DNA from: Phycisphaerales bacterium
Lineage (GTDB): Bacteria; Planctomycetota; Phycisphaerae; Phycisphaerales; UBA1924
Direction: 5' to 3'
DNA: 64,000 bases
Assembly (NCBI GenBank): GCA_046156035.1
Contig: JBJXEW010000016.1
Location: 15,185-79,184, forward strand
Below are positions 1,074-44,319 of this stretch, one piece after another; the first letter of the stretch is position 1, and every line of letters begins with the position of its first letter. Under the pieces are notes generated by a model. That model was not told the origin of the DNA, searched no databases, and saw nothing but the letters and a program-made list of their open reading frames with translations. The position numbers and the translations under genes were made by a program.

Positions 1074-1107
1074 CGCCCACCCCCCGCCCCCTCCCTCTGG
1101 GAGGGGG
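1074..1107. repeat. Solo copy of the inverted-repeat arm that flanks the DUF559 cassette at 43021-43538
   Basis: CGCCCACCCCCCGCCCCCTCCCTCTGGGAGGGGG matches 43505-43538 at 33 of 34 positions. It contains the hairpin CCCTCCC-TCT-GGGAGGG and lies between the stop of the 1139-1876 gene and the mutS start. Confidence 0.8.
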
Positions 1108-1138: not shown

Positions 1139-1876
1139 TCACGCCGCGAGGGGGCGGGAGAAGAGCGTCTGGGTCCGTGCGGGTTGCCCGATCGCTTCTG
1201 CGAGCGCGAGGACGGCCGCACAGTCTGCCCGCTTCCACCAGCCCAGGCGGCGGACATCTCGCTCGATGGCGGCCACCGGCACGACCTCGTGCACGCGGGT
1301 GCGAAGGTCGGCACGCCCGCCGAGTTGCCAGAGAAGCACCGCCGCGTCGATGGGTGAGGCACCGCCTTCCTCATTCCCCCCAGCACCACCGGCCCCACTC
1401 CCCCCACCCCACACGCGGCCGCCGCTTGCCGCGCCCGCGGCCTGCGCGGTGTGGGGGGGAAAGGACTGGGCGAGCAGCCAGGTGCTCGCGCGCAGGGACG
1501 ATTCGATGCGTTCGGCAAGCGGCGCGGCCAGACCGCGCCCGCAGTCGTTGGCTTGGCGGGCGAGGTCGCCAAGGCCCGCCATGGCGACCGCCACGGCAGA
1601 GCCGCAGGGCCGGTTGGAAGACGCGGCTCGCGCGGCGAGGTGAATCTGGTCGCACAGGCGTGCCGCGGCCTCCAGAGCCTCGGCCGTGGGCGCGTAGGTG
1701 AGTTCGGTCATGCGTTGGAGGGCAAGGCCCAGCGCGGCCACGGTGGCTGAGGGTGCCTCGCTGAGCCGCAGGCGAACGGACAAGGGCAAAGGCCGCCCGT
1801 TGGCCGCGAGGGCGTCGATCAGGGCCTCCCACTGGCCGGTGTCCGCGAGACGCTCGATCTTTCGGATGTTCAACAT
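1139..1876 (-). CDS. hypothetical protein (245 aa)
   Basis: ORF 1139..1906 trimmed to ATG 1876 (MLNIRKIERLADTGQWEALIDAL...), which has AAGGAGCA 6 nt upstream. No family recognised. Confidence 0.6.
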   Translation of the reverse strand: MLNIRKIERLADTGQWEALIDALAANGRPLPLSVRLRLSEAPSATVAALGLALQRMTELTYAPTAEALEAAARLCDQIHLAARAASSNRPCGSAVAVAMAGLGDLARQANDCGRGLAAPLAERIESSLRASTWLLAQSFPPHTAQAAGAASGGRVWGGGSGAGGAGGNEEGGASPIDAAVLLWQLGGRADLRTRVHEVVPVAAIERDVRRLGWWKRADCAAVLALAEAIGQPARTQTLFSRPLAA

Positions 1877-2023
1877 GACTTGCTCCTTGGAACGCCAAAC
1901 CACCAACCCCTGAATCCCACGCCGTCCTCAGCCCGCCCTTGCGCCTCGCCTGCTTAGTTGTACGAGGATTTCGGCTGTTTGGCACGTCAAAAGACTGCCT
2001 TTGTTTGGAGAACCGAACCCTTA

Positions 2024-2251: not shown

Positions 2252-3307
2252 ATGCAACTCATCGACATTCTCAAGGCCGCGTACGAGGCTGACGCGTCGG
2301 ACATTCACCTGGTGGCCGGGCACGCGCCCGTGATGCGGGTGCACACGGTGGTGTCGCCGCTGGACATGCCCGTGCTCTCGGCGGAAGTCTGCATGGGGTT
2401 CGTGAAGGAGATGGCCCCCAAGGAAGCCTTCGCCCGCTTCGAGCAGAACAAGGACGCCGACTTCTCGTTCTTCGCGCAGGGCATCGCCCGCTACCGCGTG
2501 AACGCCCACATGCAGCGCGGCGCGGCGGCCCTGGCCCTGCGCATCGTGAAGACCAAGGTGCCGCCCTTGGAGAAACTGAACCTGCCGGACGTGATTGCGC
2601 GGCTGACCTACCTGCCACGCGGCTTGGTGCTGGTGACGGGCGACACGGGCAGCGGCAAGAGCACGACGCTGGCGGCGATGATCCAGAGCATGAACGAGCG
2701 CTACAACAAGCACATCATCACCCTGGAAGACCCGGTGGAGTACACGTTCCAGAGCCAGACGTCGCTGATCGAGCAGCGCGAACTGGGGCAAGACATGCCC
2801 AGTTTCGCCTCGGCCCTCAAGCACGCGCTGCGGCAGGACCCGGACATCATCCTGGTGGGTGAGATGCGCGACCTGGAGACGACGGCGCTGGCCATCACGG
2901 CGGCGGAGACGGGCCACCTGGTGCTGAGCACGCTGCACACGGTGAGCGCGAGCCAGACGGTGGAGCGCATCATCGACATGTACCCGGCCAACCAGCAGAA
3001 TCAGATCCGCTCGATGCTCGCCAACACGCTGCAGGCGGTGGTGAGCCAGACGCTCTTCTCGAGGATCGATGCCCCGGGCATGGTGCCCGCTGTGGAGGTG
3101 CTGCTGTGCACGCCCGCGGTGCGCAACCTGATCCGCGAGGCCCGGACGTTCGAGATTCCCAACGTGATCGAGACGAGCAAGGCCCTGGGGATGACAACGC
3201 TCGACAAGAGCATCGCGGAGTTGTATTTCAACGGGATGATCAGCCGCGACGATGCGATCGCTTCTTCCACCATGCCCGACAAACTGGAGCGGCTGCTCGC
3301 CGCCTGA
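2252..3307 (+). CDS. pilT: type IV pilus twitching-motility (retraction-type) ATPase PilT
   Basis: 351 aa from ATG 2252 (GGGAGGGG RBS). Walker A GDTGSGKST, Walker B DPDIILVGEMRD, His box TGHLVLSTLHT, and PilT-specific AVRNLIRE motif. The N-terminal extension of ORF 1958.. has no family similarity. Confidence 0.9.
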   Translation: MQLIDILKAAYEADASDIHLVAGHAPVMRVHTVVSPLDMPVLSAEVCMGFVKEMAPKEAFARFEQNKDADFSFFAQGIARYRVNAHMQRGAAALALRIVKTKVPPLEKLNLPDVIARLTYLPRGLVLVTGDTGSGKSTTLAAMIQSMNERYNKHIITLEDPVEYTFQSQTSLIEQRELGQDMPSFASALKHALRQDPDIILVGEMRDLETTALAITAAETGHLVLSTLHTVSASQTVERIIDMYPANQQNQIRSMLANTLQAVVSQTLFSRIDAPGMVPAVEVLLCTPAVRNLIREARTFEIPNVIETSKALGMTTLDKSIAELYFNGMISRDDAIASSTMPDKLERLLAA

Positions 3308-11475: not shown

Positions 11476-13395
11476 TCAGCGCCCCGCGGCCACCGCATCA
11501 CGCCGTCCCAGTTCTCGCACCTTCCGAAAGGTGCTGCGGAAGTACTCGGTGTACGCGATGCGCGCTCGCGTGCCCTTCACCGGGTCGCGCCAGCGGTTCG
11601 TGTCGTCGGAGATGGCCTTGTAGGTTTCGGCCGTGAACGGCACGCGTGTAGTCGTGCCGTCTTTGGCCACCATCTCGTGCTCCGGGAAGGAATAGAACAG
11701 CCGCGTCATCTCCGCCAGGCGGTCGGGCGGGAAGGCCGAGTCCGTACGGGCCTTGTTGAGCGCATCCCACGCGCCGCGCAGTTCTTCCCCCGCATCCACA
11801 CCGAAGGCCCCCATCATCACGATCAGGCCCGTCCGCCAGCCGCGCACGGGCGTGTCGGAGGCGAGGTCAAACGGGTTGGTCTTGTCGGCGAAGTGGTCGA
11901 GATATCGCTCGTACATGACGCGGCGGACGGGCATGCGGCGCAGCCGCGAGGTGAGCGGCCCCATGCGGTCCTCACCGGCCGCCGACTCCGCGCCCCCCGC
12001 GCCGGGCCGGCGCGGATTGCCGCTGCTTGCCGGGTCACTCCGCGCGGCAAACTGCCAAAGGGCTTGGCCCTCTTCGCTCAGGCAGAACTCGACAAAGTGC
12101 CGGGCGATTTCCGGGTTGCGCCCGCCGCGCAGGATGGAGACGGGGTCGGCATCGATGTAGACCGATCCGGGCGGGTCGATGTAGCCAACGCGAGATTCCT
12201 CCGCGCTCTGGCCGGTGCGCTGGATCGATTGGGCCTGACCACGCCCATAGAAGTCGATGGCGACGCCCGCGATGGCCTCGCCCTGGCTCACATCGATGGG
12301 CGGCTGCGTGGAGGCGGATGCAAAGTAGCGGGCGTTGGCCGACATCTCACGCAGGATGCGCCAGCCCTTCTCCCAGCCCTCCTTGTTGAGCACCGAGTCG
12401 TAGTTGGTGGCCACGGAGCCCGACTGGCGTGCATCGGCGAGGGCGAGCAGGCCGCGGTAGCGCGGGTCGCAGAGTTTCTCGAAGGCGTCGGGGATCGGCA
12501 GGCCGTGCTCCCGCAGCAGATCGCGGTTGTAGACGATGCCGAAGCCCGACAGGGCCGTGCCCAGCCAGAACTGCTGAGGGTCGTAGAGTTTTTCGGAGCC
12601 GATCTTGTTGGTGCCGAACCAGTCGTCCAGTTGGGCCTTGCTGAAACCGGCGGGGGCGGACATGGAGACGCCCAGCAGGCGCTCGGTGCGGGCCAGGTCA
12701 AGGCGGACACTGGCGGGCTGGCCCACGCGGAGAGCCGCGCGCCAGTCGATTCCACCGGTCTCGATCCCCGCGGCGGGCACTCGCACACGAAGCGTCTCGC
12801 CCGCGATTGTCGCGTCCACCATCACGGGATCCGCCGTGTCCAGCGTGGCCAGTTCGGGAGCCTTCGCGGGCAGGGAGAGCGTCGCGGGCTCGCTCCGTGG
12901 CACCGCTGAAAGCGCCACCCACAGCGACACGTTGTTGGTGTCCTTCAGCCGGTTGTGGTCGAAGGAGCCGCCGCCGAACATGATGTCGATCGGGACCGTG
13001 TCGGGTGTGAAGAGCGGGTCGAGCGAGAAGTCGGTTCGCAGGAGTGCTTCGGGGTCGGCTTTGCGAATCTGGGAGACGATGCGGCTGGCCGCGGCACCGT
13101 ACTGGGCCTGCAAGAGCCGGACAATCTCCGTGGTGCCGCCGGGCGTGCGCCAGTCGATAGCAACACTCGCCCCGTACACGCGCTGGTGCCAGCGCCCGAA
13201 AGCCGCGCCGAACTCGGAGCGGATCTGCTCCACGTGGGGCGTGACGATCATCAGCGTCTGCGCGGCGGATCCGCCCGCGCCGCCGGCCCCTCCAGGGTGC
13301 GCCCCTCCCCCCCCCTGCAGGCGCGAGCGCACCACCATCGGCGTCGCGAGGATCAGGGCGAAGAGCACGAAGATGATCCACGGCGCGGCACGCAC
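11476..13395 (-). CDS. ABC transporter periplasmic substrate-binding protein (family 1, iron/polyamine-like)
   Basis: This is the 3' two-thirds of the 943-aa ORF 11476..14307. A likely GTG start at 13395 precedes the signal/anchor RAAPWIIFVLFALILATP. SBP-like blocks are LMIVTPHVEQIRSEF, GFGIVYNRDLL, VGYIDPPGS and RNPEIARHFVEFCLSEEGQ. The start codon is uncertain. Confidence 0.7.
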   Translation of the reverse strand: MRAAPWIIFVLFALILATPMVVRSRLQGGGGAHPGGAGGAGGSAAQTLMIVTPHVEQIRSEFGAAFGRWHQRVYGASVAIDWRTPGGTTEIVRLLQAQYGAAASRIVSQIRKADPEALLRTDFSLDPLFTPDTVPIDIMFGGGSFDHNRLKDTNNVSLWVALSAVPRSEPATLSLPAKAPELATLDTADPVMVDATIAGETLRVRVPAAGIETGGIDWRAALRVGQPASVRLDLARTERLLGVSMSAPAGFSKAQLDDWFGTNKIGSEKLYDPQQFWLGTALSGFGIVYNRDLLREHGLPIPDAFEKLCDPRYRGLLALADARQSGSVATNYDSVLNKEGWEKGWRILREMSANARYFASASTQPPIDVSQGEAIAGVAIDFYGRGQAQSIQRTGQSAEESRVGYIDPPGSVYIDADPVSILRGGRNPEIARHFVEFCLSEEGQALWQFAARSDPASSGNPRRPGAGGAESAAGEDRMGPLTSRLRRMPVRRVMYERYLDHFADKTNPFDLASDTPVRGWRTGLIVMMGAFGVDAGEELRGAWDALNKARTDSAFPPDRLAEMTRLFYSFPEHEMVAKDGTTTRVPFTAETYKAISDDTNRWRDPVKGTRARIAYTEYFRSTFRKVRELGRRDAVAAGR

Positions 13396-41447: not shown

Positions 41448-42718
41448 GCATCACACGCCCGAAGGGATTCGTCGCGGCGGGCGTGAAGGCCGGCATCAAG
41501 CCCAGCGGCAAGCCCGACCTTGCCCTCATCGTGCGCACCGCCCCCGACGGGCCCGGCGCGGCCTTCGCCGCAACCTTCACCACCAACGTGATCGTCGGGG
41601 CACCCATCGAGATCGCCCTCGGCCAACGGGCCGCGGCCCTTGCGGCCCGCGTGAATGCCAGCGGCGCAGTGCACGCGGTGAAGGCCTTCCTCATCAACGC
41701 GGGCAACTCCAACTCGGCCACGGGCCAGCAGGGCGTGCGTGATGCCCACGAGTGCATGGCCGCTCTGGCCACAGCCCTCAACTGCGAACGCGACCGCGTG
41801 ATGCCCAGTTCCACGGGCGTCATCGGCCGCCTGCTCCCCACCGCGAAAATCGTGGACGCGGTCCCGGCGCTCGTGCAGGCTTTGGCGAGCGGGCCGCAGG
41901 CCGATGCCAGCGCCGCGGCCGCCATCATGACCACCGACCTCGTTCCCAAGGCCGCGTTCGCAGAGGTCGTGATCGGCGGCGCCAAGGTGAGCATCGGCGC
42001 AATCGCCAAGGGCAGCGGCATGATCGCCCCACGCCTGGATTCCGCCAGCGGCCCGCCGCCCCCAAGCGCCACCATGCTCGCGTTCATCACCACCGATGCC
42101 GCGATTGATTCGCCCACGCTCCAGACCGCGCTCGACGCGGCTTGCGGCGCCAGTTTCAACCGCATCAGTGTGGACAACCACCCCTCGTGCAGCGACACCG
42201 CCGCCATCTTGTCCAGCGGCCTTGTCGGTCCACCTATCCGCGCCAGCACGCGAGAGTTTGCGGCCTTCGCCGCTGCGTTGCAGGCCCTGTGCGAAGACCT
42301 CGCCGAGCAGATCGTGACCGACGGAGAAGGCGCGACCCGCACGTTCCGCGTGGTGGTCGAGGGCGCGGCCACCGATGCCGATGCCGAGCGCATGGCCCGC
42401 GAAGTCGTGAACTCGCCGTTGGTCAAGTGCGCCATCCATGGCCGAGACCCCAACTGGGGCCGCATCGTCACGGCCGCGGGCAACGCCGGCGTGCGATTCG
42501 ATCCCTTGCAGGCATCGCTCGCCATCGGCCCCGTCGTCGTCTATCGCTCAGGGGTGCCACTGCCCGAGGCCCTCGTTGATCCGCGCCTGCCTGTGGCCAT
42601 GGCCAGCAAGCGTGTGGACTGCGTGCTGCGTGTCGGCACCGGCCCCGGCCGCGCATGGATGATCGGCTGCGACCTGAGCGCCCAGTACGTGAGCATCAAC
42701 GCGGACTACACGACGTAG
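41444..42718 (+). CDS. argJ: bifunctional glutamate N-acetyltransferase / amino-acid acetyltransferase ArgJ
   Basis: 424 aa. MSITRPKGFVAAGVKAGIKPSGKPDLALI, autoprocessing site PSATMLAFITTDAAI, C-terminal ...YVSINADYTT. The ATG overlaps the upstream stop (ATGA). Confidence 0.92.
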   Translation: MSITRPKGFVAAGVKAGIKPSGKPDLALIVRTAPDGPGAAFAATFTTNVIVGAPIEIALGQRAAALAARVNASGAVHAVKAFLINAGNSNSATGQQGVRDAHECMAALATALNCERDRVMPSSTGVIGRLLPTAKIVDAVPALVQALASGPQADASAAAAIMTTDLVPKAAFAEVVIGGAKVSIGAIAKGSGMIAPRLDSASGPPPPSATMLAFITTDAAIDSPTLQTALDAACGASFNRISVDNHPSCSDTAAILSSGLVGPPIRASTREFAAFAAALQALCEDLAEQIVTDGEGATRTFRVVVEGAATDADAERMAREVVNSPLVKCAIHGRDPNWGRIVTAAGNAGVRFDPLQASLAIGPVVVYRSGVPLPEALVDPRLPVAMASKRVDCVLRVGTGPGRAWMIGCDLSAQYVSINADYTT

Positions 42719-42719
42719 T

Positions 42720-42743
42720 GAAGGCACGAAGGGACGAAGGCAC
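42720..42743. repeat. Family B element (three octamers) 1 nt after the argJ stop
   Basis: The units are GAAGGCAC GAAGGGAC GAAGGCAC. The same GTGAAGGCACGAAGG string occurs at 8347. Confidence 0.8.
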
Positions 42744-42792
42744 AGGGGCCCGGAGAATGGCGCTGCCGCCCGCTGGTTCTACGATCCCGAGA

Positions 42793-44319
42793 ATGCCCGA
42801 CCGTGTCCGCATCACCGACGTCTCGCCGCGAGACGGCCTGCAGAACGAGGCCGGCGTGATCGCCACGGCGGACAAGGTCCGCCTGATCGAACTGCTCGCA
42901 CGGACGGGTGTGGATGAAATCGAAGCGACCAGTTTCGTCAGCCCCAAGTGGGTGCCGCAACTGGCGGACGCGGCTGAGGTGGTGAGGGGGCTGGCGGCAC
43001 TTGTACGCGGCGGCCCTTACTCCCCCTCCCAGAGGGAGGGGGCAGGGGGGTGGGCAGACAGGCATCAGGAACCCTCTGGGGGTCAGGCACCTGCCTCGCT
43101 CGATCCCCCACCACGCTGGCAACCTCCACTCAAGAAGCAGACCACGCTTGGGCAAGCCAAGGCGCTCCGCCGCGCCGCGACAGGCCCCGAGAAGGCGCTC
43201 TGGGAGGTGCTCCGGCAACGCGAGTGGATGGGCGCAAAGTTCAGACGACAGCATCCATTTGGCCCTTTCATCCTCGATTTTTTCTGCCAGGACAAACTCC
43301 TTGCCGTGGAGGTTGACGGCCAGACACATCGAGGTGCCATCCGAAAGAGTGAAGATGCGCAGCGCGACCTGTTCATCCGGTCATGGGGCGTCGAGGTTTT
43401 GCGGTTCACGAACAACGATGTCCTGGGTTCGCCCAGCGGCGTAGCGGCCAGAATCCGCGATGTCCTGCGCGTGCGACCCTCGCTGGGTACCACCAAGCCC
43501 CTGCCGCCCACCCCCCACCCCCTCCCTCTGGGAGGGGGCTTCGATCCATCAGCCCATCTGCATGGCCCTCCAATCCCCCTCCTCTCCGCCCTCGTCCCCA
43601 ACGAGCGAGGCCTGGACACCTGCCTCGCCGCCAACGCCGCGGCTGGCGGCCCGCTCCTCGGCAAAGTCTCCGTCTTCACCGCCGCGTCCGAGACTTTCTC
43701 CCGCAAGAACACCAACGCATCCATCGCTGAGACCATCGAGCGTTTCAAGCCCGTCATCAGCCGCGCCCACGAAGCCGCCCTGCTCGTGCGCGGCTACCTC
43801 TCCTGCATCATCCGCTGCCCCTTCGAGGGCGACATCGCCCCCGGCGCGGTCGCCGAGTGCAGCGGCCGCCTCCTCGAACTGGGCGTGGATGAACTCGACC
43901 TGGGCGACACCATCGGCGCGGGCACACCCGAAACCGTGCGGGTGATGCTCGACGCGGTGAGCCGCGTCTGCCCGCTCAACGGCTCGCGCGTGCCCCTCAC
44001 GCTGCACCTGCACGACACGTTCGGCCAAGCCGCGGCGTGCGTGCTTGCCGCGCTCGATATGGGCGTGCGTTCCTTCGACGGCTCCGCTGCGGGCCTCGGC
44101 GGGTGCCCCTACGCCAGCACCACGAAGCCCGACGGCACGGTGCAGCGCGCCCCCGGCAACATCAGCACCGAGTTGCTCGTGCGCACCATTCACTCCGCCG
44201 GCTACACCACCGGCGTGGACCTCGCCGCGCTCGACGAGGCCGCCGCATTCGCACGCCAGATCGTGGCCACGGCCCGCGCCGCCGCTCGGCCCGGGCCTGC
44301 TACCGGAGGTCCCGCATGA
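42793..44319 (+). CDS. hydroxymethylglutaryl-CoA lyase interrupted in-frame by a DUF559 endonuclease-domain cassette
   Basis: MPDRVRITDVSPRDGLQNE...FVSPKWVPQLADAAEVVRGL, then a ~180-codon insert, then LLSALVPNERGL...VFTAASETFSRKNTN...VRGYLSCIIRCPFEG...DTIGAGTPE...HLHDTFGQA...GLGGCPYA. It is a single open frame. Alternative start ATG 42757. Confidence 0.85.
   Translation: MPDRVRITDVSPRDGLQNEAGVIATADKVRLIELLARTGVDEIEATSFVSPKWVPQLADAAEVVRGLAALVRGGPYSPSQREGAGGWADRHQEPSGGQAPASLDPPPRWQPPLKKQTTLGQAKALRRAATGPEKALWEVLRQREWMGAKFRRQHPFGPFILDFFCQDKLLAVEVDGQTHRGAIRKSEDAQRDLFIRSWGVEVLRFTNNDVLGSPSGVAARIRDVLRVRPSLGTTKPLPPTPHPLPLGGGFDPSAHLHGPPIPLLSALVPNERGLDTCLAANAAAGGPLLGKVSVFTAASETFSRKNTNASIAETIERFKPVISRAHEAALLVRGYLSCIIRCPFEGDIAPGAVAECSGRLLELGVDELDLGDTIGAGTPETVRVMLDAVSRVCPLNGSRVPLTLHLHDTFGQAAACVLAALDMGVRSFDGSAAGLGGCPYASTTKPDGTVQRAPGNISTELLVRTIHSAGYTTGVDLAALDEAAAFARQIVATARAAARPGPATGGPA
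43021..43538 (+). mobile_element. DUF559 (Vsr-like endonuclease fold) cassette bounded by ~37-bp imperfect inverted repeats
   Basis: The arms are 43021-43057 TCCCCCTCCCAGAGGGAGGGGGCAGGGGGGTGGGCAG and 43501-43538 CTGCCGCCCACCCCCCACCCCCTCCCTCTGGGAGGGGG. The interior encodes ALRRAATGPEKALWEVLRQREWMGAKFRRQHPFGPFILDFFCQDKLLAVEVDGQTH...LFIRSWGVEVLRFTNNDVL. Exact ends are uncertain by a few nt. Confidence 0.7.

Follow-up and report, generated by a model that had tools for sequence, protein, structure and literature searches.

What kind of genetic element can place a complete nuclease domain inside the reading frame of a metabolic enzyme and leave that frame open? The question is raised by a gene for 3-hydroxy-3-methylglutaryl-coenzyme A (HMG-CoA) lyase in the window, the whole stretch of 64,000 nucleotides of Phycisphaerales DNA that was analysed here. 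A preliminary description of the window reported that this gene is interrupted by an in-frame DUF559 endonuclease cassette bracketed by two inverted repeats (here called arms), and the observation is confirmed in each factual element. The cassette is probably a selfish, homing-type element that persists in frame, without splicing, in the alpha2-beta3 surface loop of the lyase; its nuclease activity and mobility are predicted from sequence comparison.

A nuclease domain in an open lyase frame

Open reading frame (ORF) 42655-44319 on the forward strand is a single open frame with zero stop codons in the insert. The mechanical start of the ORF (ATG 42655) overlaps the 3' end of the upstream argJ gene, which stops at 42718; orthologues support ATG 42793 (MPDRVRITDV), the likely true start, which gives a product of 508 amino acids (aa). 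This product is 100% identical to a deposited protein from a Phycisphaerales metagenome-assembled genome (MAG), P0121, which is annotated only as a “DUF559 domain-containing protein”. The two ends of the frame are colinear with HMG-CoA lyase, as first described: the Pfam family PF00682 (HMGL-like) matches the window protein in two separated stretches (E=2.9e-36; the second at aa 290-485), and human HMGCL (2cw6, E=3.2e-67) matches aa 1-68 and 266-491, with ~190 residues in the window protein where the human enzyme has a loop of ~8 residues. The interposed segment, earlier estimated at roughly 180 codons, can be delimited by DNA and protein comparison with the nearest insert-less orthologue (L001/P0125), whose lyase part is 88.8% identical to that of the window. 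Against this orthologue the insert is exactly 558 nt, or 186 codons (43015-43572). The empty site of L001/P0125 reads CGCGGCGGT / GGCCCCCTGTTT, and the insert junctions in the window protein are GG/PYSPSQ and HGPP/IPLLS (slashes mark the junctions).

The lyase is predicted to be functional, as all of its catalytic residues are kept. R13, D14, E44, H405, H407, C438, and N456, which correspond to the catalytic and metal residues R41/D42, E72, H233/H235, C266, and N275 of the human enzyme, are invariant in 50 homologues with the insert (filled) and without it (empty).

The insert encodes a complete DUF559 domain. PF04480 matches at aa 120-225 (43150-43467) with E=7.2e-28 and 97.1 bits against a cut-off of 20.6, spanning profile positions 5-108 of 109, and the domain also matches PDB entry 3hrl (E=6.6e-14). 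The window copy has all 15 of the residues that do not vary among 40 family members (E61, D63, H67, D76, and R79 in core numbering are among them), and the same columns are kept across the lyase chimeras. The DUF559 profile matches the homing endonuclease I-Bth0305I (3r3p, E=1.8e-4), with the invariant E/D/H/D residues common to both; this match and a DUF559 domain found within an intein (see below) place the nuclease in a family with proven homing members. We infer that the chimera acts as a nuclease with specificity for a site or a structure and is related to the EDxHD enzyme I-Bth0305I. Another DUF559 protein, VsrA, causes DNA damage in vivo in Caulobacter (PMC12907096).

The absence of a start codon proper to the domain, also part of the preliminary description, is borne out on reading the ORF. 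Downstream of the left junction, no in-frame ATG, GTG, or TTG occurs before the DUF559 fold begins, and the first in-frame ATG (43228) is inside the domain, so that the nuclease is producible only within the lyase polypeptide. An internal translation start for the window copy was considered and rejected, none being in frame ahead of the fold. Some other alleles, unlike the window copy, have a Met at ...LTMxRAR....

An AlphaFold2 (AF2) model of the chimera has a mean predicted local distance difference test score (pLDDT) of 85.7. The TIM barrel (aa 1-76 and 258-500) is modelled with a pLDDT above 90 and a separate DUF559 domain (aa 107-233) with a pLDDT of 85-95, and the arm-encoded tethers that join them (aa 77-106 and 234-257) score below 50 and are disordered. 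The insertion point lies between helix alpha2 and strand beta3 in the DSSP order, in a loop that we take to be on the face of the TIM barrel opposite the catalytic beta-alpha loops. The model thus presents the chimera as two independently folded domains linked by disordered, arm-encoded tethers. Together with the invariant catalytic residues, it agrees with the first of three readings offered in the preliminary description, a tolerated domain insertion.

The insert lacks the marks of a self-removing element. The window protein has no Hint or Intein Pfam match at E<=0.01 and no Cys/Ser/Thr or His-Asn junction residues, and the flanks of the nuclease domain are disordered; the insert must remain in the mature protein. 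Rfam gives no match at E<=1 in 42900-43700, and the frame is continuous; an intron or structured RNA is not supported.

Codon-level comparison of two filled alleles, P0129 and P0127, shows that the DUF559 core is under purifying selection, with constraint on par with that of the lyase: the proportions of nonsynonymous (pN) and synonymous (pS) differences are 0.109 and 0.77 in the core and 0.118 and 0.561 in the lyase. In the linker and arm codons pN is 0.206 and pS 0.331; with the protein level relaxed, the low pS points to constraint on the DNA.

The imperfect inverted repeats that bracket the domain, with the reported CCCTCCC-N3-GGGAGGG motif, are 93% complementary over 28 nt (43022-43049 / 43511-43538) and extendable to 34 nt (43022-43055 / 43505-43538) with one 1-nt indel. 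Each arm pairs perfectly over 9 bp to form the hairpin CCCCCTCCC-N3-GGGAGGGGG, whose inner side adjoins a G-run in the left arm and a C-run in the right. The left arm begins with the hairpin CCCCCTCCC-AGA-GGGAGGGGG (43022-43042; free energy, dG, -10.7 kcal/mol as DNA), continues with the G-run CAGGGGGGTGGGC, and encodes the disordered linker SPSQREGAGGW. The right arm, which encodes PPTPHPLPLGGG, consists of the C-run GCCCACCCCCCA followed by the hairpin CCCCCTCCC-TCT-GGGAGGGGG (43518-43538; dG -11 kcal/mol). In the 64-kb window CCCTCCC-N3-GGGAGGG occurs three times, against 0 expected (100 shuffles). The solo arm reported at 1074-1107 is present and differs from the right arm at 1 of 34 positions; it sits in a 160-nt spacer (980-1139), just past the stop of ORF 1139-1906(-). 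A mutS-like reading frame starts on the minus strand near 980(-), and the solo arm is ~95 nt upstream of it. As a separate observation, the 3' stem and G-run of the left arm (43034-43054, GGGAGGGGGCAGGGGGGTGGG) contain four G-tracts, a canonical G-quadruplex-type motif that applies to all arms and would compete with the arm hairpin; the C-rich complement lies in the right arm.

The window arm is open in 6/6 frames (PPPRGRGQGGG, PLPEGGGRGVG, PSQREGAGGW, AHPPAPSLWEG, PTPLPPPSGRG, and PPPCPLPLGG), and among 135 arms Pro and Gly make up 56% of the encoded residues, with a stop in only 4% of frames; arms are therefore read as a flexible linker wherever they land in a loop. Among lyase alleles, left arms are read in all three frames (PPPRGRGQGVG, SPSQREGAGG, and LPLPEGGGRGVG), which argues that it is the DNA that is conserved and not the peptide. 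The arms remain ~90% identical in nucleotides between alleles with lyase parts that have approached or passed saturation at synonymous sites.

Table 1. Positions of the lyase parts, the insert, and the arms in the window.
Feature	Position	Strand	Basis
HMG-CoA lyase N-terminal part, aa 1-74, beta1 to alpha2, with R13/D14 and E44	42793..43014	+	Pfam; human HMGCL residues 2-69
Entire in-frame insert, 186 codons	43015..43572	+	Comparison with L001/P0125
Left arm	43022..43055	+	Inverted-repeat and hairpin analysis
DUF559 nuclease domain (Vsr-like PD-(D/E)xK, EDxHD-type; predicted), in the lyase frame	43129..43488	+	Pfam, PDB 3hrl, AF2
Right arm, inverted copy of the left arm	43505..43538	+	Inverted-repeat and hairpin analysis
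Extra linker FDPSAHLHGPP, right arm to resumption of the lyase	43539..43572	+	Not in empty L001
HMG-CoA lyase C-terminal part, from beta3 onwards (H405/H407, C438, and N456)	43573..44319	+	Pfam; human HMGCL 78-283
Solo arm, intergenic (C-run and hairpin on the + strand)	1074..1107	-	33/34 identical to right arm

The linker FDPSAHLHGPP is longer than its counterpart in other filled alleles, whose right hairpin sits 3-7 codons before SALVPN. In syntenic loci the lyase gene adjoins enoyl-CoA hydratase genes, to which three loci (L002, L003, and L125) add carboxyltransferase and acyl-CoA dehydrogenase genes. Two of these loci (L002:5266-5709 and L003:5403-5846) also have a 147-aa Y1_Tnp gene (IS200/IS605 or RAYT-like, where RAYT is a tyrosine transposase associated with REPs, the repetitive extragenic palindromic sequences) 4.5 kb upstream of the lyase.

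Alleles of the lyase loop and copies in other hosts

Among the 120 best homologues of the chimera, 42 are full-length proteins with both PF00682 and PF04480. These are 443-552 aa long; those with a named source all come from Phycisphaerae or Planctomycetes, and some lie on contigs of up to 4.4 Mb. In 42/42 filled alleles the insert (144-233 aa) occupies the same loop, between W(V/I)PQLxD..EV and SALVPN; junction positions vary by a few codons, and arm types differ too. Filled and empty alleles are interleaved on the lyase tree. With 42 filled clusters diverged to this degree (59-79% lyase identity) and the insert core under purifying selection, the second reading of the preliminary description, a recent hit that inactivates the enzyme, is rejected.

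Five states of this one loop are shown by the alleles (clean empty, complete, two-arm, solo-arm, and bare hairpin), and they form a life-cycle series. Clean empty sites are found in P0125 (“GLAALIRGGGPLFS”) and in P0140, P0147, and P0148. Two-arm alleles without a nuclease are represented by L127/P0164, which has 119 nt between its arms and whose left linker is like those of P0135 and P0141, both full cassettes, and by P0157. A solo left or right arm is present in P0163, P0214, P0217, and P0215 (P0216 also bears an arm remnant), and P0172 and P0166 retain a bare hairpin. One clade (P0159, P0160, P0161, P0167, and P0179) has a very divergent, armless DUF559 domain in the same loop.

A filled and an empty allele can be compared at close range in two syntenic MAG loci (L002 and L003, respectively), whose lyase coding DNA is 96.6% identical. 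A single 474-bp (158-codon) indel separates them. It is bounded by the 11-bp sequence AACCCCCTCCC in direct repeat, the 5' half of the hairpin in either arm, and exactly one hairpin remains in the empty allele. Because each arm is palindromic, the inverted arms are also direct repeats over the stem, which makes precise deletion possible. The same junctions would arise equally from a break in the loop of a solo hairpin that is repaired off a filled copy.

The cassette is also found outside the lyase. An exhaustive search over 1.84 billion representatives gave 21,848 matches, and about 30 of the best 150 of these are long proteins with an internal DUF559 domain. The HsdS subunit is host in 14 cases among the best 150 (P0262, P0278, P0280, P0286, P0289, P0299, P0301, P0338, P0339, P0344, P0349, P0357, P0358, and P0373); there the insertion is arm-flanked and lies in the central conserved region, between ...DFDPVRAKM and ...LFPDSFEDSELGEIPEGW. 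Other restriction-modification (R-M) or methylase hosts are HsdR (P0326), N6_Mtase (P0253), an Eco57I-type protein (P0243, with two copies), and Type ISP (P0330). Metabolic hosts include an enzyme of the 6-phosphogluconolactonase (6PGL)/glucosamine-6-P-isomerase family, whose domain is split in two, and a ThiD2-ThiE fusion. In other hosts, too, arm peptides flank the inserts with unchanged polarity (LPSPSGRGVGGEG ... PSPPAPLPEGEG), and arm-type peptides occur in 34/42 lyase chimeras and 22/29 other long hosts, against 29/217 small DUF559 ORFs and 0/117 control lactonases.

The 6PGL host presents a clear derived gain: three clusters alone carry the insert, which neither the nearest orthologues nor any others have, and the DNA, from an organism of 58% GC, has the same architecture as in the lyase, namely a hairpin (CTCCTCTCCCC-GGA-GGGGAGAGGAG) with a G-run and then, beyond the domain, a C-run with a hairpin. 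In two further proteins, P0361 (aa 431-680) and P0337, DUF559 lies within an intein inside a DNA methylase (split N6_N4_Mtase). The intein is marked by an Intein_splicing C-block after DUF559 (E=2.4e-4), a weak Hint_2 match before it, and the motifs TADH and VYDLEVEGAHSFI; on these matches DUF559 can apparently act as an in-frame intein endonuclease domain.

Free-standing genes may be armed as well. One metagenome locus (L017) has the order hairpin-G-run, DUF559, C-run-hairpin. In a low-GC Clostridium MAG (L004:3886-4434, CAOKNG010000004.1), a single locus found through protein similarity alone, a 118-aa free-standing DUF559 gene occupies the rpoB-rpoC spacer between GC-rich inverted repeats of 68 nt that are 96% complementary, making a cassette of ~550 bp between two essential genes. 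Across 754 kb of arm-bearing metagenome loci there are 5 loci with DUF559, each <=381 bp from an arm; only 11% of the bases in those 754 kb are within 350 bp of an arm.

The arm itself is a widespread dispersed short palindromic repeat. A metagenome scan with the query CCCCCTCCC-N3-GGGAGGGGG-N2-GGGGG found the pattern at at least 120 loci; among the loci listed, the consensus places YN-GGGGG-(G)WGGG after the hairpin, and there are several sub-families, one of which is preceded by CGTCA. Arms are read through in frame in Pfam-verified MM_CoA_mutase (methylmalonyl-CoA mutase), YidC, GDE (glycogen debranching enzyme), Asn synthase, Aminotran_4 (class IV aminotransferase), DHO_dh (dihydroorotate dehydrogenase), and, as a doublet, a glycosyltransferase. 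Solo arms are also intergenic in genomes with filled lyases; in L002 one that lies 10.7 kb away is identical over ~40 nt to the left arm of the cassette. The outcomes that the preliminary description had set against itself (a segment shared by orthologues without the repeats, no profile match to DUF559, or no other arms in the genome) were not encountered: orthologues with the segment also carry repeats, hidden Markov model support is strong, and arms occur elsewhere.

Several minor features of the arms may be recorded here. Three tandem copies of an arm with its 5' flank recur with a period of 108 nt at L030:2162-2405, and a DnaE-like polymerase gene (L009:~12400-12900) contains several in-frame arms (...PSPQPPPGGRG...PPGGGGTGRGG...PLSPGEGGEG...). 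One arm sub-family has long conserved flanks on both sides, GTAACCGTTCACT - arm - GAGGGAGAATCTTGATAT(T/G)GCTGGAGTTTGCTATCTCTCC, and is found in L033, L037, L038, L063, L069, L099, L107, L110, and L124; it may be the end of another element or an RNA. In L069 two such arms in inverted orientation (313-340 and 3202-3229) lie 2.9 kb apart around PIN-toxin-like ORFs, and a UbiD fragment also adjoins.

Gain, loss, and competing explanations

The 42 filled alleles share one loop as their insertion site, and empties are interleaved with them, as in homing; against a homing pattern, junctions shift by a few codons, and neither a recent transfer nor a co-conversion tract was seen. The history of the insert departs in part from that of its host. 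Pairwise distances in the 117-column DUF559 core correlate with those of the lyase at r=0.22-0.25, against 0.60 (range 0.41-0.73) for a control of two random 117-column lyase halves. In the proposed cycle the element has the layout of hairpin and G-run arm, DUF559 nuclease, C-run and hairpin arm, and the chimeric nuclease would cut either cassette-less alleles or arm hairpins. Repair off a filled copy would then install the cassette in the cut allele; homology at the junctions could come from the 9-bp hairpin stems, and this would yield exactly the junctions of L002 and L003. Selection on the host enzyme would purge insertions that are out of frame or badly placed, and recombination between the palindromic arm halves would later delete the cassette and leave one arm. 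The whole scheme would amount to a Goddard-Burt-type homing cycle minus splicing. It corresponds to the third reading of the preliminary description, an in-frame element without intein chemistry, which gains support from architecture and distribution, mobility being its putative part. More tentatively, hairpin-armed DUF559 cassettes may constitute a widespread, undescribed mobile class: homing endonuclease genes that dispense with splicing, use their arms as built-in linkers, and, through arm-to-arm deletion, seed the REP-like repeats that lie between genes and within many of them. The nuclease would then be expressed as a tethered domain of whichever protein the cassette has entered, be it a metabolic enzyme, HsdS, HsdM, HsdR, or a methylase.

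The strongest competitor, although unlikely, is an ancient vertical fusion of the domain to the lyase of an early member of the Phycisphaerae. The domain, once fixed as an accessory, would be neutral or useful (e.g., in Vsr-like repair or in moonlighting while tied to a housekeeping enzyme), and its patchiness would reflect arm-mediated deletions only. A number of observations fit this history and weigh against repeated homing. The correlation of insert and lyase distances, weak as it is beside the control, is positive and non-random (Mantel p=0.008), which means that much of the history is vertical, and several sister pairs are congruent in the insert and lyase trees; the trees themselves were built by neighbour joining from short alignments. 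Junctions and insert length are common to P0127 and P0129, and their sisters P0166, P0172, and P0174 have the hairpin only, so that parsimony favours ancestral presence and three independent losses. In the same pair insert pS is at least as high as host pS, in line with the old age of all inserts compared, and the DUF559 core is held by purifying selection. The indel between L002 and L003 is simplest as a deletion: it fits loss at least as well as gain, and parsimony favours loss. No recent horizontal copy is present among the inserts compared, the best match to the window insert being only 58% identical, and no near-identical insert copies turned up elsewhere. Inspection of the lyase flanks revealed no co-conversion tract, and the window flanks resemble the empty relative P0125 and not the lyases with the most similar inserts.

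Vertical descent is, however, difficult to reconcile with a concordance of 0.22, far under that of the equal-length control, and with arms that are read in three frames and whose types and junction positions vary among alleles. The clade of the window is telling in this respect, since clean empty sites without arm traces stand there beside two filled alleles with unrelated inserts. In P0123, whose lyase is the nearest filled one to that of the window (78.6%), the insert core is no more than 41% identical, and arm type and junction differ as well, whereas the inserts most like that of the window (P0124 at 58%, P0122 at 56%, and P0133 at 55%) sit in lyases that are 72%, 71.5%, and 64% identical. 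The armless, very divergent DUF559 lineage in the same loop also counts against a single fusion, and the occurrence of the same cassette in many unrelated hosts, the narrow-clade gain in 6PGL, and the intein point to an invasive element. These comparisons indicate a history that is only partly coupled to the host gene, vertical within sub-clades and with repeated replacement or re-invasion.

A second competitor, which is improbable, makes the arms the mobile unit, REP-like, with DUF559 either as their dedicated nuclease, enclosed by inverted arms in the way that REPs enclose RAYT genes, or as passive cargo trapped when two arms inserted independently in a permissive loop. Further points against a cassette that moves as a whole belong here. 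About 96% of the listed arm loci have no nearby DUF559, so the arms may spread by another route, and in three free-standing loci (L057, L084, and L016) arm orientation relative to DUF559 is flipped, which means that the cassette is not a rigid unit everywhere. Solo arms are both intergenic and in frame in many genes, and one of them, in L002, matches the left arm of the cassette there. A gene between inverted repeats of a dispersed palindrome is also the layout of a REPtron, and REPs of the CGTC type are noted to have no known dedicated transposase, while REPs are also noted within genes (Di Nocera 2013, PMC3733652). The window arms, however, have neither a GTAG nor a CGTC tag. Passive capture would leave unexplained both the same hairpin-G-run ... 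C-run-hairpin polarity of nearly every in-frame DUF559 in unrelated hosts and the purifying selection on the DUF559 core. The Y1_Tnp gene near the lyases of L002 and L003, considered as a mobiliser of the arms, was rejected: it is not flanked by arms and is missing from the syntenic L125. To our knowledge, PD-(D/E)xK nucleases do not act as stand-alone transposases.

That the chimera is an assembly or binning artefact, or a pseudogene open by chance, is effectively refuted: the window does come from a MAG and high-GC DNA is prone to long spurious ORFs, but the same architecture recurs in 42 independent protein clusters (NCBI, JGI, ENA, and Logan), including contigs of 3.8 and 4.4 Mb, with codon-level purifying selection on both parts, invariant catalytic residues, and confident AF2 folds.

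Relation to known elements

No earlier description of a hairpin-armed, in-frame DUF559 cassette was found in the open-access literature, and the element combines features of several known kinds. As in a transposon with terminal inverted repeats, the arms are 28-34 nt long and 93% complementary, and two-arm, non-autonomous derivatives exist (L127/P0164, P0157, and L049). There is no consistent target-site duplication at the window junctions, and no transposase is encoded in the cassette. Two candidates for such a duplication were rejected: the 11-bp repeat at L002 and L003 is part of the arm's own palindromic half, and a 9-nt TCCCCCTCC repeat at the outer junctions in the window has a spacing of 554 nt, which is neither a multiple of 3 nor 558.

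Among known elements, the ShiLan-type insertion of actinophage DNA methylases comes closest (Arsenault, Gosselin and Gogarten 2025, PMC11855218). Like the cassette, it adds no stop to the host reading frame, lacks the features of inteins and introns, shows a disjunct, homing-like distribution, and contains a nuclease gene; it is also predicted to protrude as a loop from the host protein, which is not destroyed by it (PMC11855218). The ShiLan nuclease, however, is an HNH enzyme encoded out of frame with its own GTG start, and the in-frame reading of the insertion is a structureless loop. It resides in a phage gene that is not essential, and terminal inverted repeats are not reported for it. The window cassette, in contrast, has DUF559 in the host frame without a start of its own, is predicted to fold as a domain of the host, and is hairpin-armed, and the hosts of DUF559 cassettes are cellular metabolic and R-M genes.

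Inteins with homing endonucleases share with the cassette an in-frame position in a conserved gene, a sporadic distribution with empties in close relatives, a nuclease nested between two flanking modules, and a decay series comparable to mini-inteins. They differ in that the window cassette has no Hint or splicing domain and no junction residues, its disordered flanks taking the place of the Hint fold.

Vsr-like homing endonucleases are known in fractured genes, split inteins, and a group I intron, and in antisense within inteins (PMC2677866, PMC3239194, 10.1101/2025.01.02.630785). The EDxHD enzymes among them (I-Bth0305I; Dassa 2009, PMC2677866; Taylor 2011, PMC3239194) belong to the same superfamily as DUF559 and are inserted in conserved coding regions, and the papers on fractured genes note hairpins upstream of the nuclease ORF and one fractured gene without an intein (PMC2677866, PMC3239194). 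Those nucleases either are encoded by free-standing ORFs that break the host in two, with a split intein as the usual rescue, or lie in a group I intron, whereas the host frame in the window runs straight through the nuclease. None of the Vsr-like cases cited is an in-frame domain of an uninterrupted host enzyme.

Rickettsia palindromic elements (RPEs) were reportedly described by Ogata in 2000. Intragenic REPs likewise occur inside genes (Di Nocera 2013, PMC3733652). Both resemble the arms alone, as short palindromes in frame in unrelated genes that are tolerated as extra peptide, and a dispersed palindrome in frame in diverse genes is what the arms are, an RPE-like class in a functional sense only. 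RPEs and REPs carry no protein domain, whereas two arms here bracket a nuclease; the window arms are also of another sequence family, with an all-G/C 9-bp stem and G-runs, and neither they nor the lyase arms in general have a CGTC or GTAG tag. REPtrons and REPIN-RAYT systems (REPIN, REP doublet forming a hairpin) likewise have one gene between inverted copies of a palindrome that is also dispersed as solo units and doublets. Their enclosed gene is a Y1 (HUH) transposase and not a PD-(D/E)xK protein such as DUF559, which in addition lies in another gene's frame, and the copy number of the arms in the window is low by comparison (3 per 64 kb).

It is plausible that the combination of two known kinds, homing-type selfish insertions and intragenic palindromic repeats, represents a broader, unrecognised class of element. 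The persistence of inteins and self-splicing introns in conserved genes is usually attributed to their self-removal; the cassette suggests a third strategy, which is to remain in the protein, bring disordered linkers, and land in a surface loop. This would explain a common annotation pattern in which DUF559 or “endonuclease domain-containing” proteins are fused to unrelated enzymes and R-M subunits, and it would give DUF559 a concrete, testable role and tie a nuclease family to REP-like repeats that have no known mobilising enzyme. If the class is indeed widespread, DUF559 would be the enzyme partner long missing from a superfamily of REP-like repeats, and selfish elements, not repair genes, would account for a large share of “DUF559” annotations. 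Arms would mark naturally permissive sites for domain insertion, as well as natural linker sequences, in enzymes. For annotation, the label “DUF559 domain-containing protein” can conceal an HMG-CoA lyase that is predicted to be functional.

Two rearranged forms of the domain and its cassette were also seen. Tandem DUF559 proteins occur with three domains (P0241) or two (P0244), and at L121:9840-10600 partial tandem duplications join the 3' end of a DUF559 cassette to its 5' start, an arrangement reminiscent of circle junctions or repeated partial invasions.

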